The notes: generated from the letters alone by a model not told the origin. Positions 1,178-8,288 are shown, counted from the first letter of the stretch. The stretch: DNA of 64,000 nucleotides from Candidatus Poriferihabitaceae bacterium (GCA_965249835.1 CBDFMY010000003.1:929979-993978); one strand, 5' to 3'. Made by a program: numbers and translations.

Positions 1178-2587
1178 GTGCAATACATTAGCACCCGCGG
1201 CAACGCGCCGACACTAAACTTTGAACAAGCCACTCTGGCCGGGCTTGCCGCCGACGGCGGGTTATACCTGCCGCGCGTCTGGCCCAATTTCAGCGAACAA
1301 GAAATGCGCGAATTGCGCAATTTGGAATACGCGCAACTGGCATCTCGCATGGTTGCGCGTTTCAGCGGTGATTGCATTCCGGCTGACACATTGGAGCGGA
1401 TCAGCACGCAAGCCTGGGGTAATTCAGGGGGCAATTTTTCCCACCCGAAAGTAGCACCGCTCAAGCAATTGGACGAATCGTTATATGTAATGGAATTGTT
1501 TCATGGTCCGACTTTGGCGTTCAAAGATTTCGCGTTGCAATTTCTTGGCCGGTTGTTCGGTTACTTCCTCGACCGGCGCGGGCAGCGTTGCACCATCATC
1601 GGTGCCACTTCCGGCGACACCGGTCCGGCCGCCATTGAAGCGGTGCGTGGCATTGATGCAGTGACCTTATATATGCTGCATCCGCATGGCCGGGTGTCCG
1701 AAGTGCAACGCCGCCAGATGACCACGGTGGTGGAGCGCAACATTCACAACCTCGCGGTGGACGGCGATTTTGACGACTGCCAGAACCTGGTCAAGGCGAT
1801 GTTCAACGATGCCGAGTTTCGTGAGCAGCACGCGCTGGCGGCGGTCAATTCCATCAACTGGGCGCGGATTGCGGCGCAGGTTGGGTATTATTTTTACGCC
1901 GCGTTGCAACTCGGTGCGCCACAGCGCGCGGTTAATTTTGCGGTGCCGACCGGCAATTTCGGTAATGTTTTTGCCGGCTACGCGGCGCGGGAAATGGGAC
2001 TTCCCATCAATCGCCTGATTATCGGCTGCAACAGCAATGATATTTTGACGCGGTTTTTCGAAAGTGGTGCGATGAAAAAAAATCAGGTGACGCCGAGCAT
2101 TTCGCCGAGCATGGATATTCAGATTTCCAGCAACTTCGAACGCTATTTGTTCGAATTGCTGGAGCGTGACAGCACCCGCATCCGCGACTTGATGACGCGC
2201 TTCGCCGCGCATGGGGAATTCGCGGTGCCGCGTGAAGCGCATCAAAAAGCAACCGAATTGTTTTTCGCGCATCAATTTTCCGACCGGCAAACTCGTGCGC
2301 AAATAAAACGGGTGTATGAAGAGAGTGGGGAATTGTTGGACCCACATTCGGCGATCGGCGTGGCGGCGGCGCGAAAATATCTTGCCAATCATTCATCGAC
2401 TACCGAACCCACCATCGTGCTTGCCACCGCGCATCCGGCGAAGTTTGCCGATGCGGTGCAACACGCTTGTGATGTGTCGCCGTCATTGCCGCCGGATTTG
2501 CGCGCGATTATGCAACGCGAAGAGCATTACACACGTGTGCCGAATGATTTGTCGGCGGTGAAGTCGGTGATTGGGCGTGGTGATTGA
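1178..2587 (+). CDS. thrC: threonine synthase
   Basis: 469-aa ORF with GTG start. The N-terminus MQYISTRGNAPTLNFEQA and the PLP-lysine context HGPTLAFKDFALQ are classic ThrC. Confidence 0.93.
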   Translation: MQYISTRGNAPTLNFEQATLAGLAADGGLYLPRVWPNFSEQEMRELRNLEYAQLASRMVARFSGDCIPADTLERISTQAWGNSGGNFSHPKVAPLKQLDESLYVMELFHGPTLAFKDFALQFLGRLFGYFLDRRGQRCTIIGATSGDTGPAAIEAVRGIDAVTLYMLHPHGRVSEVQRRQMTTVVERNIHNLAVDGDFDDCQNLVKAMFNDAEFREQHALAAVNSINWARIAAQVGYYFYAALQLGAPQRAVNFAVPTGNFGNVFAGYAAREMGLPINRLIIGCNSNDILTRFFESGAMKKNQVTPSISPSMDIQISSNFERYLFELLERDSTRIRDLMTRFAAHGEFAVPREAHQKATELFFAHQFSDRQTRAQIKRVYEESGELLDPHSAIGVAAARKYLANHSSTTEPTIVLATAHPAKFADAVQHACDVSPSLPPDLRAIMQREEHYTRVPNDLSAVKSVIGRGD

Positions 2588-3494
2588 ACGCGGCGGCGCT
2601 TATATTCGTCGACATTGGCGCGGCGAGTTATCGTTGCCGGTTTCCTTTTGGATAAACTTTTTTCTGGTCTACCTCGCCCTCGCGTTGCTGCAACAATTTT
2701 TTCTCACGCCGCATGTTTTTGGCAAAGTTAATTTGGGCGAAGTCGCGGTCATTTATTCGGTCACGATATTTTCAATCGTGGCGCACGCAATCATTTATCC
2801 GTGGCAAATCATCGGCGTGATTCGCGCCTGCGAACGCCGCATCAAAAATCGCACCGACCGCTCCTGGGCGATTGCCGCCGAGGGAGTCGTGGTATTGAGC
2901 ATCGCCGCAACGCTCGCCGCGGTTTTCTCCAGTTACCAATCAGTGCTGGGTTACCAAAGCAGTTTGCGCCTGCCGGAGAATTCCGAAACCGAACGCGCAT
3001 ATCAACTCGACCTGATTCGGGGAAACACACTCATTCACTTGCGCGGGGTTTTCGAAGTCGGGATTACTCGGCGGGTCTCCCGATTGCTCGACCACCATTC
3101 GCAAATTACCGGCATCATTCTGGACAGCGACGGCGGGCAAATTTACGAAGGTCGCGGGCTAGCGCGGTTGATTAAGGAAAACAAATTGGCTACTTATTCG
3201 CTGGAGCAATGCGTGTCGTCCTGCGCCACCGCGTTCATAGCCGGCACCCGGCGCACGCTGGGCGTCGGCGCGAAACTGGGGTTTCATCAATACAAAAAAT
3301 ACGCGGTGATGCCGCCCATCAACATCGACGAAGAACAAGATAAAGACCGGGCATTGTTCGAAGCACAAGGCATCTCCCCGACATTTTTGCGCAAAATGTT
3401 TGCGCAGCCGCCGGACAAAATGTGGTGGCCCGGCGAACAGGAATTGCTTGACGCCGGGGTTGTCCATGAAACCGGTTTTTCTTTGCCGCCGTGA
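2571..3494 (+). CDS. membrane protein with C-terminal ClpP/S49-like peptidase-fold domain (tentative)
   Basis: 307-aa ORF overlapping the thrC stop. It has several N-terminal hydrophobic helices. The C-terminal segment ILDSDGGQIYEGRGLARLI...CVSSCATAFIAG resembles ClpP/S49-class serine peptidases. The family call is weak. Confidence 0.5.
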   Translation: MGVVIERGGAYIRRHWRGELSLPVSFWINFFLVYLALALLQQFFLTPHVFGKVNLGEVAVIYSVTIFSIVAHAIIYPWQIIGVIRACERRIKNRTDRSWAIAAEGVVVLSIAATLAAVFSSYQSVLGYQSSLRLPENSETERAYQLDLIRGNTLIHLRGVFEVGITRRVSRLLDHHSQITGIILDSDGGQIYEGRGLARLIKENKLATYSLEQCVSSCATAFIAGTRRTLGVGAKLGFHQYKKYAVMPPINIDEEQDKDRALFEAQGISPTFLRKMFAQPPDKMWWPGEQELLDAGVVHETGFSLPP

Positions 3495-3531
3495 ATGTGC
3501 GTTCGGCGTAGCCGGACTCCTTACCAATAGA

Positions 3532-4107
3532 TTATTGCCGTCTGCTGTCGCTGCGCATATCCGGCAAATCTTCATGCATTCGCTCGCCGGTGCGCGGATG
3601 CGCGAGTGTCGGCAGGTTCGGTTTGATGTCGTGAAAATGTTCATCAATCGAATACATCACCAGCCGATTGTATTCGCTCGCGCCAATGGTCAACTTACCG
3701 GCGTCGGCGATGCATTGACGCACTGTCGGCGAGTTCCATTTTTTGAACGTAATGAAAATACCCATTGCCGCTTTGCCGCCGGCAAGTGAATCGCAGAATG
3801 CGCGCAACTCATTTACATTGGGCGTGCCACCTTTTACTTGTGCGATGCACAATCCATTTTTCAAAGAGGGATCGTGCAACATACCGCGTCCGTCAATGCC
3901 ACCATCACCGCGTTGTACGGTGTTCGGTGCAAAACCGCGAATGCGAGTAACCGCCCACTTCTCAAAATCAAACGGCTTGGTGCGCGCAAAGTGTTGTGCC
4001 GCCGCAATATCTTTCGGCACGCCCACTACCGGAATGTCCATGTCATTCAATCGTTCGCGACGAATCACCTCAATGGCATATGTCGAAATATCAATGCCCG
4101 CCCACGC
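3532..4107 (-). pseudogene. relic of a DNA methyltransferase C-terminal tail fused to an Mrr-type (PD-(D/E)xK) restriction endonuclease domain
   Basis: Homology begins abruptly at [18 protein letters not shown], a typical methylase C-terminal helix. It continues into GDGGIDGRGML...CIAQVKGG (Mrr_cat-like D..GIDG / QxK). No methylase catalytic domain lies upstream. The first ~37 codons of track ORF 3532..4209 overlap the ileS remnant and look non-coding. An internal ATG at 4041 could still give a 169-aa nuclease-domain protein. Confidence 0.55.
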
Positions 4108-4874
4108 GCACGTAGTCGATATCCGCGCCCACCGCCAGTAGCAAGTTGGACGGCAAGGTCCACGGCGTGGTGGTCCACACCAGCAGCGAAGTGTTGTCCT
4201 CGCCGGCAAGCCGAAAGCGCACCGTAATCGAAGGATCCTCCCCGGTAGCCTTGCGCCACTTCGTGGGATGACAGTGTGGCGCCAATGCGCGGATCATACG
4301 GCACTACTTTGTAGCCTTTGTAGATCAAACCCTTGTCCCAAATTCGCTTTAACAAATTCCAGGTTGACTCGATATAGTCGTTGTCCAGCGTATAGTAAGC
4401 CTGGTCAAGGTTCACCCAATAACCCATGCGCCGGGTCATCCGCTCCCATTCGCCGATGTAGGTCATCACCGATTCGCGGCAGCGGCGGTTGAACTCGGCG
4501 ACGCCAACTTGGCTTTCGATTTCCTTCTTGTCAAAGATGCCCAGTTGCTTTTCTATTTCATGCTCCACCGGCAAGCCGTGGGTATCCCAGCCGCCCTTGC
4601 GCGGCGCATAGTAGCCGCGCATGGTTTTGTATCTGGGATAAATGTCCTTGAACGCGCGCGCCAGCACATGATGGATTCCCGGCTTGCCGTTTGCCGTGGG
4701 CGGGCCTTCGTTGAAACTGAACCGCGGCTTGCACGCGCTTTGGGCAAGGGATTTTTCAAAAATAGCATGCTCCTCCCAAAACTTGAGTATGCGCTGTTCC
4801 AGTTGCGGCCCGTTATAGCGGCCCTGGACTTCATCAAAAACCTGCGCTTCAACAATGTTTTTTTCGTCGTGCAT
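4091..4874 (-). pseudogene. ileS: isoleucyl-tRNA synthetase (type 2 / eukaryote-like), N-terminal ~325 codons only, frameshifted
   Basis: The translation shows PRFSFNEGPPTANGKPGIHHVLARAFKDIYPRYKTMRGYYAPRKGGWDTHGLPVE (HIGH region). Homology switches frame near 4238-4244 (HEVAQGYR / [11 protein letters not shown]...[11 protein letters not shown]) and ends at ...ADIDYVRV. A full IleRS is about 1000 aa. Confidence 0.8.
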
Positions 4875-4919
4875 GAATTAAATACTTTTTTGTATCCAAA
4901 CTTCAAGATTGCTATACGT

Positions 4920-4961
4920 AAAAAAGCCCCGGAGATGTTATCTAAATAACCTCTCCGGGGC
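4920..4961 (-). terminator. intrinsic terminator of the T-box leader
   Basis: GCCCCGGAGA(g)GUUAU-UUAG-AUAAC(a)UCUCCGGGGC followed by U6 on the minus strand. The 5' arm overlaps the 3' arm of the antiterminator. Confidence 0.8.
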
Positions 4962-5170
4962 GATGGTTATTCGCGGTACCACCCGGTTTCAACTGGATTT
5001 CACAATCCAGGCCTCTTAGTGAGTGCAATCCCCTCGGACACGCACTCTTGCTTTGTTTCGTAAGCAACCCGGCTGAGTCTACTCAGAAATTGATTTCTTT
5101 TCGGTCAGCAGCTCCATGGTGATATTCATCGGTGTCACACATTGGGCTTGCACCATCCCCAACTCGCTTG
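4920..5170 (-). promoter_or_regulatory. T-box leader (tRNA-sensing transcription attenuator) upstream of the ileS remnant
   Basis: The minus strand reads GGGUGGUACCGCG (4972-4984), the invariant T-box core. It folds as the canonical antiterminator: A1 CCGGG/CCCGG, 7-nt bulge UGGUACC, A2 GCGA/UCGC. This competes with the terminator at 4926-4961. There is a stem III-like hairpin at 4993-5010 and Stem I-like AGCGAG and GGUGCAAG motifs at 5147-5168. The 5' boundary is approximate. Confidence 0.75.
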
Positions 5171-5369
5171 CTCCATTTTGTATTTGTGTTTGTATTCGCG
5201 ACCTTATTTCCACGAGTACATGGGTATATATAGATGGAAGCCGTAACGGATCGATTACTCGTCCCCTTCAAAGCATAAGGGTGAATGTACTCGTTGTCCG
5301 GTTTTATAGCAAGCATGGCGTTGATGGCTTCGGAGAAGAGTGATTAATTCATCCTCAAGTATAATGAAA

Positions 5370-6182
5370 TTATCTACCGACACCTTGTCTCCAATCATCG
5401 GCAAATATCCATCTATTTTCTTCAGGCAACCATATTTGCCAGTCCCGCCATCCGTTTCGGCTTGTGTTAGTAATATATACAGACGCGGCTGAAAAAGATG
5501 AAAACTCTTGCTGAATACCTGCAATCAAAATTTTACCCGCTAAGATTTCACCGCGATATTCTTTATGTTGAAAAGTGGCTTTGCATATTGTGTTATTGGG
5601 CATATCTTTGAGCGTGAGGCCGTTCACACTTTTTCTATTAACAAGCTCCTCGTCTATATGATGGGTTTCATTTTTATTTTCGTTCCACCATCGATTGAAG
5701 GCATTTGTGTTTTCCTCGCTTCTGGGGTGGCAGCCCTTATGCATTAAAGCACCGTTGCTTAAATCTGTTTTTCCTCCTTGATGATGAGGTATTACATGAT
5801 GGATTTCCATCTCTTCCCATAATACTTCATGCGGTTTCCCTTCTTTCAGACACCACTGGCACTGTTTTTTGTCTCTTATGTAGATAATAGTACGTTGTAA
5901 ATCAGAAAAAATACGTTCTGTATCTTTTTTTCTTAAATGAGAAGACAGAATCTCTAGCATTTCACTAAGAAAGAATTCATGGCGGTTTTCAATGATTTGG
6001 CCTTCATCGCTACTCGTCCGCGTCCATCGAGAGTACCGTTTCCAATACGCGTCATATTTGGATTCTTCATTATTTTTCTGTGCTTTGTCTGCTTCTTTCC
6101 ATCGGCTACGGAATTTTATATGGGCATCAACAAGATGGCCTTCCCATCCAAAAGCATAATCTTTGATTAACAAATCGATCAA
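5370..6182 (-). CDS. HNH endonuclease domain plus RAMA-like C-terminal domain; 3' part of a frameshifted DUF262-HNH (GmrSD-like type IV restriction) gene
   Basis: HNH signature CQWC...EIHHVIPHHQGGKTDLSNGALMHKGCH. The C-terminal YRGEILAGKILIAGIQQEFSSFSAASVYITNTSRNGWRDWQIW resembles the RAMA domain (tentative). The frame stays open upstream of the TTG start. AT-rich. Confidence 0.7.
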   Translation of the reverse strand: MIDLLIKDYAFGWEGHLVDAHIKFRSRWKEADKAQKNNEESKYDAYWKRYSRWTRTSSDEGQIIENRHEFFLSEMLEILSSHLRKKDTERIFSDLQRTIIYIRDKKQCQWCLKEGKPHEVLWEEMEIHHVIPHHQGGKTDLSNGALMHKGCHPRSEENTNAFNRWWNENKNETHHIDEELVNRKSVNGLTLKDMPNNTICKATFQHKEYRGEILAGKILIAGIQQEFSSFSAASVYITNTSRNGWRDWQIWLPEENRWIFADDWRQGVGR

Positions 6183-6208
6183 TACAATAAGGTGAATGGC
6201 TTCATGCC

Positions 6209-7072
6209 CTACAAGTTTTGGACCTTTTTTAGCAAAAGATGGGTTAATTTCTCTATGGCTTTTTGAAAATCTTTGGCAGCATCACAGTTCTTGTCAAAAC
6301 CTATATTTTGGTGATAAAAATTATCAAGATTTTGCGATTTGATAGCGCAGAAACTTTTTTTCTTGTCATTCCTTTGATCAAAGAAAATCATGGCTAGTTG
6401 AGCCGCTAACTGTCGTTTTCTGCTACTACTATTAGTTCTAATAATCTCCCTGAAGAATTGCCATCCGATTTTTCCGCTATCACCATCTTCTGGATTCAAT
6501 GCTTCTTTACCTGCGATTTCTAAAATATATTTCGTAAATCCACCCGGCCATGCATCTCTTTTATCTTGAGCGCTTAAAGGGGTTCCTCCCTGTAATCGGA
6601 TAAAAAGGTCTCTCACTTCATTATCATTGTTTGTAGTAATTTCGTAAATAACAACTGTTTGGGTTCGTAATCTCTCTTGGTATTCGATCTTTAATTCTGA
6701 AAATGTTTTTCCTGCCCAACCGCATGGTTTGCCTTGAACAAAATTAGGAAATTTGAAACTTGATTCTTTTGGATCTAATAAAACAAATGTGCCTGCTGTA
6801 AATTCTTTCAAAGCACGAATTCTTTGTTGCCCATCAATAACATCAAATTGTTTTATTTCCTTTCCATTTTCGGCTGGTGTAAAAGTGCCTTTGAAATGAA
6901 AATAAAATGCGGGAATAGAATAGTTACGCAAGACAGAATCAATAAACATTTGTTTTTGGCTTTTGCTCCACACAGCCGATCTCTGATATTCGTCGTTAAA
7001 GCGAAGTTTAACTTCTTCGTTCTCGTTCACGAGAAAATTTATGGTTTTATCTGTGGTAGTTTCAATATTCAT
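6209..7072 (-). CDS. DUF262 (ParB/GmrS-like) domain protein; 5' part of the same frameshifted gene
   Basis: Motifs EYQRSAVWSKSQKQMFIDSVLRNYSIPAFYF, VIDGQQRIRAL and RDLFIRLQGGTPLSAQDKRDAWPG. Start chosen at ATG 7072 (MNIETTT) with GGAGGA 8 nt upstream. The track ORF extends to TTG 7147, inside the IS inverted repeat. Confidence 0.75.
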   Translation of the reverse strand: MNIETTTDKTINFLVNENEEVKLRFNDEYQRSAVWSKSQKQMFIDSVLRNYSIPAFYFHFKGTFTPAENGKEIKQFDVIDGQQRIRALKEFTAGTFVLLDPKESSFKFPNFVQGKPCGWAGKTFSELKIEYQERLRTQTVVIYEITTNNDNEVRDLFIRLQGGTPLSAQDKRDAWPGGFTKYILEIAGKEALNPEDGDSGKIGWQFFREIIRTNSSSRKRQLAAQLAMIFFDQRNDKKKSFCAIKSQNLDNFYHQNIGFDKNCDAAKDFQKAIEKLTHLLLKKVQNL

Positions 7073-7123
7073 TTCTTTGCTTCCTCCAAATATTTTTTCA
7101 ATGATAAAATGATTACTGTAAGT

Positions 7124-8288
7124 CACTGCTGTCCCATTAACAGGCAAAAAAGATGGTCTGATTCGCTCTGAATTGATACAATGAATTTATCTACAACTTG
7201 TTGAATCAAATAGGAGAATCAGACCATGGCGCATTGTAATACAGTTTTATCGCAACTCCTCAAATGGGTGCCGAGACATGAATTCGAGAGCCTGGCCAAA
7301 CGGCATCCATCATAGTGGCCGCTCGTTCCGTGTCGCGTCGCGTTGGGCGCAGTTCGTCGAACTGTCCCGCTCCAGCCTGGCGCGCATCAACCGGGACAAG
7401 CCTTATACGTTGTACGAGGCACTGTTCAAGAAACTGTTGCGACGTTGCCAAGGGGTCGCGGGCATAAGTTTCGTTTCAGTATTCGCTTGATGCCAGCACC
7501 ATCAAGTTGTGCCTCTCGGCCTTCCCGTGGGCCGATTTCCGAACGACCAAGGGGGCGGTCAAGCTGCATGTCGGGCTGAACCACCGCGGTTGCCTGCCCG
7601 AGTTCGCAGCCATCACCGACGGCAAAACCAGCGACCTCGCTATCGGGCGCGCGCTGCGTTTCCCCAAAGGCAGCCTGGTCGCCATCGACCGCGGATATAA
7701 CGACTATGGCTAGTATAAACAGTTGCATGACAACGGCACATTCTTGGTCACTCGTATCAAGAAAGACGCGGCGTATCGCGTTGTCGGTCGCGCGGCGGTG
7801 TTGAAGAGCAAGGGATTAACCTGCGACCAGCGCATCGTGTTCACCGGCCTCAAGGCAGCCAGACAATGCCCCATCCCATTGCGCTGCATCGGCTACCGCG
7901 ATGCCAAGACCGGCAAGCATTACGTTTTCTTGACCCATCATTTGAAACTGGCGGCCAAGACGGTCGCCGACCTTTATCAAGCGCGTTGGCAGGTGGAATT
8001 GTTGTTTAAGTGGATCAAGCAAAACCTGAAGATAAAGTCCTTCATCGGCACCAGCAATAACGCGGTGATGACGCAAATATGGATCGCGCTGTGCGTGTAT
8101 TTACTCTTGGCGTTCATCAAATTCCAGTCGCGGCTGGACAAAAGCATGCAACAAATGCTCCGCGTGTTGCAGCTTAACTTGTTCGACAAGCGCGACTTGA
8201 TGGCGCTCTTGCGTGGCGACCGGCCCCCCAGACCCGGCTTCAATCGCAATCAGGCCTTGTTGCTGTGAAAGTTAATGGGACAGCAGTG
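7124..8288 (+). mobile_element. degenerate IS4-family insertion sequence (about 1165 bp)
   Basis: Perfect 18-bp terminal inverted repeats CACTGCTGTCCCATTAAC at 7124-7141 and 8271-8288 (reverse complement) bracket the transposase remnants. No flanking direct repeat was seen. Confidence 0.8.
7226..8268 (+). pseudogene. IS4-family DDE transposase (DUF4372-type N-terminus + DDE_Tnp_1), multiply disrupted
   Basis: The N-terminus MAHCNTVLSQLLKWVPRHEFESLAKRH stops at TAG 7313-7315. Homology continues in other frames (HSGRSFRVASRW..., GHKFRF..., FPWADFRTTKGAVKLHVGLNHRGCLPEF...AIDRGYNDYG). There is an in-frame TAG at 7711-7713. The intact C-terminal part is 7723..8268 (YQARWQVELLFKWIKQNLKIKSF). Confidence 0.8.

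Follow-up and report, generated by a model that had tools for sequence, protein, structure and literature searches.

What does a T-box leader do in a gammaproteobacterium when the gene behind it is dead? In teaching, T-boxes are presented as belonging to Gram-positive bacteria, and they are overwhelmingly a feature of Firmicutes. The window discussed here, a stretch of 64,000 nucleotides from a member of 'Candidatus Poriferihabitaceae', carries one on its minus strand in front of a remnant of ileS, the gene for isoleucyl-tRNA synthetase. The leader is very probably a transcriptional class-I T-box specific for tRNA-Ile(GAU), an orphan with no functional product and a recent relic of exchange or recombination between related symbionts.

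Such leaders are rarely reported from Proteobacteria. Wels et al. 2008 found a T-box in only 2 of 125 Proteobacteria, the Deltaproteobacteria Geobacter sulfurreducens and Pelobacter carbinolicus, and both were leuA leaders (PMC2494555). Outside the Firmicutes, T-boxes are mainly the isoleucine leaders of Actinobacteria, Chloroflexi and Deinococcus-Thermus (TBDB preprint, 10.1101/2020.06.17.157016). A literature search found no paper on T-boxes in Woeseia/Woeseiaceae or in Ca. Poriferihabitaceae.

The leader and its parts

An earlier note on this DNA had placed a T-box leader at 4920-5170, minus strand. All the motifs that it quoted are present there; the element itself is longer, since the 5' half of Stem I reaches 5274. 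The Infernal comparison that the note had proposed gave a significant alignment: in a search of 4700-5500 (801 bases), positions 1-219 of RF00230, the full length of the model, align to 5280-4953 of the minus strand at 56.2 bits (E 1.8e-11), with Stem I and a specifier loop placed upstream of the core. The search of the rest of the genome, also suggested there, returned the same match (E 1.5e-11) as the sole T-box of the genome.

A scan at the Rfam gathering score (93 bits) reported no T-box in the window because the leader scores only 56.2 bits; reporting by E-value was the setting that brought out the RF00230 match. The score is low mainly because of two unaligned inserts, one of ~68 nt in Stem I and one of 28 nt before Stem III. 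In a first survey of relatives only three of 28 leaders passed 93 bits, yet all 28 lie upstream of ileS. The threshold is therefore conservative for this lineage, an annotation cut-off and not a biological criterion. The 13-mer GGGUGGUACCGCG, which had been named as the T-box core, was found at 4984-4972 (minus strand) as a single match in the 64-kb window, where 0.14 are expected by chance from shuffles. The stretch 5280-4920 of the minus strand is a complete class-I T-box leader, and its parts, with the promoter and untranslated region that flank it, are as follows.

5312-5284, minus strand: putative sigma-70 promoter, TTGCTA (5312-5307), 17-nt spacer, TACATT (5289-5284)
5274-4920, minus strand: whole class-I T-box leader, from Stem I to U6 (5312-4920 with the promoter)
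5274-5111, minus strand: Stem I, by RF00230 alignment, with motifs invariant in 24 relatives and pairs that covary
about 5240-5170, minus strand: AT-rich insert of ~68 nt in Stem I, adjoining the AG bulge on its 5' side, by alignment with relatives
5123-5121, minus strand: specifier codon AUC (Ile), followed by A5120, by RF00230 alignment; GAA-U-AUC-A occupies 5126-5120
5117, minus strand: A where 24 of 24 relatives have C, turning G-C into G.A in the helix under the specifier loop
5110-5045, minus strand: Stem II (GCUGA...UCAGC, GAA/AGUA S-turn motifs) and Stem IIA/B (5071-5059), by RF00230 alignment, with three non-standard pairs
5010-4993, minus strand: Stem III hairpin CUGGAU-UGUGAA-AUCCAG, by RF00230 alignment
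4986-4955, minus strand: antiterminator, with T-box core 4984-4972 and 7-nt bulge UGGUACC 4981-4975, by folding and RF00230 alignment
4961-4920, minus strand: intrinsic terminator, a hairpin of 10 + 5 bp (4961-4926) and U6 (4925-4920), by folding
4919-4875, minus strand: 5' untranslated region from terminator to start codon, of which 4912-4875 is 87% like the ileS 5' UTR of genome G476

The putative promoter is called on conservation in relatives, not on a scanner. Both hexamers align with the conserved cTTGc...gTAcAtTc blocks that lie upstream of the T-boxes of eight relatives; a promoter scanner gave no match at its 9-of-12 threshold, TTGCTA/TACATT matching at 8 of 12.

Stem I has the GA/K-turn base UGA...GGA and a specifier loop whose 5' strand is AGUA and whose 3' strand is GAA-U-AUC-A. 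The AG-bulge and distal-loop motifs that the sequence had suggested are there and align to RF00230: the AG bulge AGCGAG at 5168-5163 and the distal loop GGUGCAA at 5154-5148, with GGUGCAAG at 5154-5147. This distal platform (AGCGAG + GGUGCAA) is invariant in the relatives. The 68-nt insert, which lies beside the AG bulge, may disturb it. At the same site the relatives have anything from nothing to a stretch of ~40 nt, with a hairpin in several. The insert shows no differences in read-derived contigs. A mobile element was considered as its identity and rejected, the insert being single-copy in the genome and not a repeat. Minimum-free-energy folding of Stem I alone gave neither a canonical fold nor a thermodynamic signal (z +0.76), as is expected of a helix that is rich in non-canonical motifs and also carries an insert.

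The AUC triplet proposed as the specifier aligns as such in Stem I, and its GAA-N-AUC-A context is kept in 26 of the relatives' 28 leaders. A second AUC-A that had been remarked upon is present (5094-5091); it is part of the Stem II loop, not a specifier. The one real departure of the leader is A5117: among the 82 columns of the alignment that at least 22 of 24 relatives conserve, 81 are kept, and the exception breaks a pair (columns 16-131) that is G-C in all 24. The Stem III-like hairpin falls where the model has Stem III, and the pairs of both Stem II and Stem III covary in the relatives.

In the antiterminator, CCGGG (4986-4982) pairs with CCCGG (4959-4955) and GCGA with UCGC, at -11.3 kcal/mol, so that the fold of two helices around a bulge that had been drawn from the sequence holds. 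The competing terminator, likewise described beforehand as strong and followed by U6, folds at -26.2 kcal/mol (z -7.4), and none of 200 shuffles folds as well. It shares CCCCGG with the antiterminator, and the two structures are mutually exclusive. UGGU in the bulge (4981-4978) is complementary to the tRNA 3' end ACCA. The genome has one tRNA-Ile(GAU), which ends in A73-CCA; AUC is complementary to its anticodon and UGGU to its 3' end.

Control by tRNA charging is the established mechanism of T-boxes. In an intact locus of this kind, two parts of Stem I would recognize tRNA-Ile, AUC its anticodon and the AG-bulge/distal-loop platform its elbow. Uncharged tRNA-Ile has a free ACCA end, with which the UGGU bulge would pair, stabilizing the antiterminator. 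With charged tRNA, the stronger terminator would form and transcription would halt before ileS. This is the textbook T-box mechanism, and the element adds to a known type in an unusual bacterial class.

Several kinds of known leader can be set beside this one. For the class-I ileS leaders of Bacillota (RF00230), an example is that of Staphylococcus aureus (Grundy et al. 1997, as cited in PMC2494555). These have in common with the window leader a long Stem I with K-turn, specifier loop, AG bulge and distal loop, Stems II, IIA/B and III, a choice between terminator and antiterminator, an AUC specifier and ileS as target. The 14-nt T-box core with its UGGN bulge is also found in both. Unlike them, the window leader has a gammaproteobacterial host, a score below the gathering threshold and an extra 68-nt insert in Stem I, and its gene is a type-2 ileS cut off after 25% of its length. 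The ileS T-boxes of Chloroflexi, Deinococcus and Actinobacteria are likewise Ile T-boxes joined to ileS outside the Firmicutes (PMC2494555; 10.1101/2020.06.17.157016). Actinobacterial leaders of the well-studied class act on translation and have a shortened Stem I, whereas the window leader has a long Stem I and an intrinsic terminator. The deltaproteobacterial leuA T-boxes (PMC2494555) share with it a proteobacterial host and differ in class, in their Leu specifier and in having a biosynthetic target gene. The leaders that resemble it in core, GAA-N-AUC-A context and type-2 ileS target are the Ile leaders of Woeseiaceae and related uncultured Gammaproteobacteria. In contrast to the window copy, an orphan in a genus otherwise without the leader, these Woeseiaceae-type leaders stand before a working housekeeping ileS.

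Isoleucine T-boxes across the family and order

NCBI taxonomy places Ca. Poriferihabitaceae in the Gammaproteobacteria, order Arenicellales. The closest public ileS loci belong to Arenicellales, to Ca. Poriferihabitaceae (metagenome-assembled genomes from sponges), to Woeseiaceae and to unclassified Gammaproteobacteria. A search of 61 related genomes found one T-box in 27 and two in one more, spread over the family and the order, and each of the 28 T-box matches has ileS immediately behind it. In the window's own genus, the 11 other genomes gave no T-box. A scan for the core motif in the nearest proteobacterial loci, among them those of Woeseiaceae, found it ahead of ileS in 26 of the 28 that could be used. 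Across the class the leader is rare: 401 genomes drawn evenly from the Gammaproteobacteria gave two matches, one of them in the genome of the window (G000).

The relatives' leaders have the GGGUGGUACCGCG core followed by the CGCCCCGG strand, and in most a terminator with a U-run. The RNAalifold consensus of 24 of them contains Stem I, Stem II, IIA/B, Stem III and the antiterminator, and 34 of its 47 pairs covary by compensatory change. Judged by this conservation, they appear to be a family of working Ile T-boxes. In three loci of the same order (L113, L114 and L099) the core is kept with no obvious terminator and U-run after CCCCGG, and these leaders may regulate translation. In another locus of the order (L090, 815-1522, genome G039) the T-box terminator is separated from ileS by an ORF of ~214 aa (MYKLILGNKNYSSWS...) that resembles glutathione S-transferase; with the ORF in this position, the T-box there would control a two-gene unit.

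Within the family the distribution follows genera. The T-box is present in 30 of 33 genomes of nine genera and in none of 35 other genomes of genera g1, g7, g8, g9 and g14, a count that leaves aside the window copy, whose genus is among the five. In ten family members the gene immediately before the T-box encodes a rhomboid protease, with citrate synthase beyond it where the locus reaches that far. The native order, seen on comparing L002 of G000 (525.2-529.1 kb of contig C3) with L093, L098, L100 and other loci, is rhomboid, T-box, ileS. In g1 and g8 the leader is gone from promoter to terminator, and ileS starts 18-32 nt after the rhomboid stop codon. The Ile T-box is the ancestral ileS leader of the family and order, and the window's genus lost the native copy between rhomboid and ileS; within the family the loss is repeated, five genera in all having lost the leader. 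Four of the five genera without it have genomes of ~2.3-3.5 Mb, and the fifth is represented by a single 4.0-Mb genome; loss of the T-box may accompany genome reduction.

The proteobacterial setting in which the earlier note had put the T-box is correct, the host being a gammaproteobacterium. The leader is neither an oddity of this locus nor an import from another phylum, and belongs to a clade-wide class of ileS leaders. A recent import from Firmicutes or another Gram-positive donor, for which the strong bias of T-boxes toward Firmicutes and the count of 2 in 125 Proteobacteria by Wels et al. 2008 (PMC2494555) could be adduced, is next to impossible: the closest leaders and ileS genes all come from the same gammaproteobacterial family or order, and the promoter and 5' UTR are also common to relatives at that level. 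The core pattern was found upstream of type-2 ileS in five of the nearest non-gammaproteobacterial loci, from Anaerolineae, Actinomycetota and Deinococcaceae. This is consistent with gene and leader travelling together, and such co-transfer may be proposed from the shared pattern. As for annotation, eight of 43 leaders in the family and order reach 93 bits, so that routine Rfam annotation will miss most of them.

The ileS fragment and its neighbourhood

Downstream of the leader the minus strand continues into a fragment of ileS and then into a remnant of another gene; on the other side of the leader lie a split restriction gene and a transposase fragment.

4874-4103, minus strand: truncated type-2 ileS, codons 1 to ~264 of 1058, matching NCBIfam ileS/MupA/MupB and Pfam tRNA-synt_1 with the N-terminus only
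4102-3532, minus strand: C-terminal remnant of a methyltransferase-Mrr gene (end of the methyltransferase domain and Pfam Mrr_cat)
7147-5370, minus strand: split GmrSD-type type IV restriction gene, GmrSD_N at 6209-7147 and HNH/DUF4357 at 5370-6182, with a G+C of 0.33-0.41
7723-8268: decayed IS4 transposase fragment, which adjoins the split GmrSD gene and whose ends recur at least eight times in the genome

That the ileS behind the T-box is dead had been said from the sequence, and the extent of the fragment bears it out. The ORF 4874-4065 matches ileS/MupA/MupB over its first 211 residues only and Pfam over its N-terminal 180 residues only. A second, frame-shifted stretch carries the homology on, for a total of ileS model positions 3-251 of 861, and it ends with ...ADIDYVRV near 4103, before a stop. 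A full-length type-2 IleRS has a catalytic core, CP1 editing domain, KMSKS loop and anticodon-binding domain, and the fragment falls short of this. The change of frame is due to a 5-nt deletion after 4240. None of the read-derived contigs, which drop minor variants, shows the deletion, and all those over 4240 carry five extra bases. The frameshift may be an assembly error; the truncation is independent of it.

The cell has a working copy elsewhere. An intact type-2 ileS of 1058 aa, with all domains, lies at 525.2-528.4 kb of contig C3, 18 nt after the rhomboid gene and with no leader. A search of the genome found no type-1 ileS. Among 37 genomes sampled, only that of the window has two ileS matches.

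The arrangement itself might be suspected of being an assembly artefact, with the leader, ileS reads of a neighbouring organism and DNA of G000 wrongly joined. Three public sequencing runs of one study (X1-X3) contain ~90% of the words of the stretch, at depths that are even over several kilobases and look like DNA. They may be the assembly's own data, and the support they give is at read level, not independent. In all three the ileS segment is 3 to 60 times deeper than its flanks: over 4102-4866 the depth is 3756-6201 in X1, 4741-7686 in X2 and ~2600-3600 over most of the segment in X3 (higher where it is conserved), and over the leader it is 95.8, 69.7 and 967, respectively. The high-depth contigs leave the window at both ends, at 4102 and 4866, and continue exactly as G477, a genome of another genus of the family (g8); a G477-like organism is thus the dominant relative in the samples. 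The excess depth, these contigs and the five extra bases at 4240 speak for an artefact.

The joins themselves tell otherwise. Contigs at G000 depth run from the leader into the start of ileS, as far as 4810 (X1), 4837 (X2) and 4860 (X3), and in X3 a 94-nt contig of depth 884 without differences spans 4076-4169, including the junction at 4103. A 2.3-kb leader contig, also without differences, runs to the end of IS4. Depth specific to G000 can be read from its variant of the Mrr region (68.9 in X2, 784 in X3) and from its intact ileS (1284 in X3). The leader follows it, with 69.7 against 68.9 in X2 and 967 against 784-884 in X3, two samples with very different ratios of G000 to G477. Since contigs at G000 depth cross both joins, the arrangement is real at the level of reads, and a wrong join is very unlikely. 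One host sample contains at least four variants of the ileS 5' region: the dominant G477-like one, a G476-like one (depth 122), G000's own and the relic. The depth sums of X3 do not add up, being 3562 at 4140-4479 and 2670 at 4644-4836, and for this reason they were set aside as a guide to whether molecules of G000 have the five extra bases at 4240.

Beyond the fragment, the window matches five genomes of the same genus through an acyl-CoA ligase, thrC and a 307-aa gene (2571-3494), and then diverges. The full-length methyltransferase-Mrr fusion (~500 aa) is intact in two congeners (L229, L231). What the window retains is its C-terminal third, the first ~300 codons being replaced by the ileS fragment at the junction. 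An uninterrupted methyltransferase-Mrr version, continuing '...VEAAYRLHR', is also present in the reads, in a related strain, at ~650-fold depth. Every gene in the 5-kb stretch from 3532 is broken, and the stretch is a genome-specific junkyard or defence island.

Could the orphan have found new work there? The promoter, specifier, platform motifs, core and terminator all appear intact in sequence, which fits a young relic. The retained promoter, specifier, core and terminator could also be taken as signs of exaptation, in which the T-box gates transcription of the Mrr fragment or of the island by tRNA-Ile charging, and a search of the minus strand from the ileS fragment to the Mrr ORF found no terminator. 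Against this, the downstream gene is itself truncated, without ~300 N-terminal residues of its full-length homologues, the arrangement occurs in one genome only, and Stem I has both the pair-breaking A5117 and a large insert. Exaptation is accordingly most improbable. Its specific form, in which isoleucine starvation or phage-depleted charged tRNA-Ile would cause readthrough into the Mrr fragment or island genes, is fainter still; if true, such co-option would tie a nucleic-acid defence function to tRNA charging. On the reading preferred here, an orphan relic, the leader is followed by only the first quarter of ileS and a truncated neighbour, so that the switch, even if transcribed and responsive, controls no functional product. 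As a regulatory element the window copy is of no consequence.

Origin of the fragment and DNA exchange among symbionts

The remnant has only 81% DNA identity and 88% protein identity to G000's own ileS. A protein search for donors (one genome per species, metagenome contigs and 36 relatives) gave at best 86-89% amino-acid identity. It took a DNA search of all 69 family genomes to bring out the 99% match, G477, a 3.0-Mb genome of genus g8 in a single contig. Over 4103-4866 the identity to the G477 ileS is 99.6%, with three base differences (4110, 4139 and 4275) and 5 nt absent after 4240, and it collapses at codon 3 and at 4103.

The leader points elsewhere. G477 has no T-box, its ileS ATG lying 32 nt after the rhomboid stop, and none was found in the sampled g8 genomes. 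The leaders nearest to that of the window are those of genera g12, g5 and g6, at 66-78% identity, and the reads hold no second similar leader at a likeness of at least 80%. The 38 nt between the terminator and the start codon (4912-4875) are, as listed above, 87% like the 5' UTR of G476, itself a g8 genome without a T-box. Pieced together from these matches, the remnant is a mosaic of a T-box of unsampled origin, a g8-type UTR and a coding fragment, and with g8 lacking the T-box and the nearest leaders at 66-78%, at least one recombination is needed to make it. As for the donor lineage that the earlier note had hoped to read from the ileS remnant, no simple single donor emerges, because the coding part matches, at 99.6%, a co-resident species of another genus that is without a T-box. 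A tree of 597 nt, with no resolution at the key node, placed the remnant outside the well-supported clade of its own genus; AU tests gave p 0.38 and 0.32, and membership in the own genus is not rejected (p 0.38).

Two routes to this mosaic can be considered. In one, a relative of G477 outside the sampled set, with a T-box of its own, gave the DNA in a single transfer; the near-intact leader fits this route. The other, which concerns the origin only, is an older resident relic of T-box and ileS start whose coding part was later overwritten by homologous recombination from a G477-like neighbour. It would explain why the near-identity to G477 has the same limits as the homology, codon 3 and 4103, and why the differences cluster at the edges (4110 and 4139 at one end, 4867-4879 at the other), with one substitution in 4140-4866. 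The lack of a T-box in any sampled g8 genome is also in its favour. However, the lower-identity flanking arms are only ~22 and 37 nt, short for an exchange of the RecA type, none of the 11 other genomes of the genus has such a relic, and a long neutral residence sits badly with a leader in which 81 of 82 conserved positions are kept. Overwriting of a resident relic is accordingly a tentative alternative, on the unlikely side.

For the biology of these bacteria the locus matters in two ways. It belongs to a clade-wide set of Ile T-boxes that precede type-2 ileS in Gammaproteobacteria (Arenicellales and Woeseiaceae-like lineages) and that standard Rfam annotation mostly misses. It also holds a 0.77-kb piece of a housekeeping gene in which two sponge symbionts that live together and belong to different genera are 99.6% identical, against ~80% for their own ileS genes, and this gives direct evidence that DNA was exchanged very recently within the microbiome of a host.
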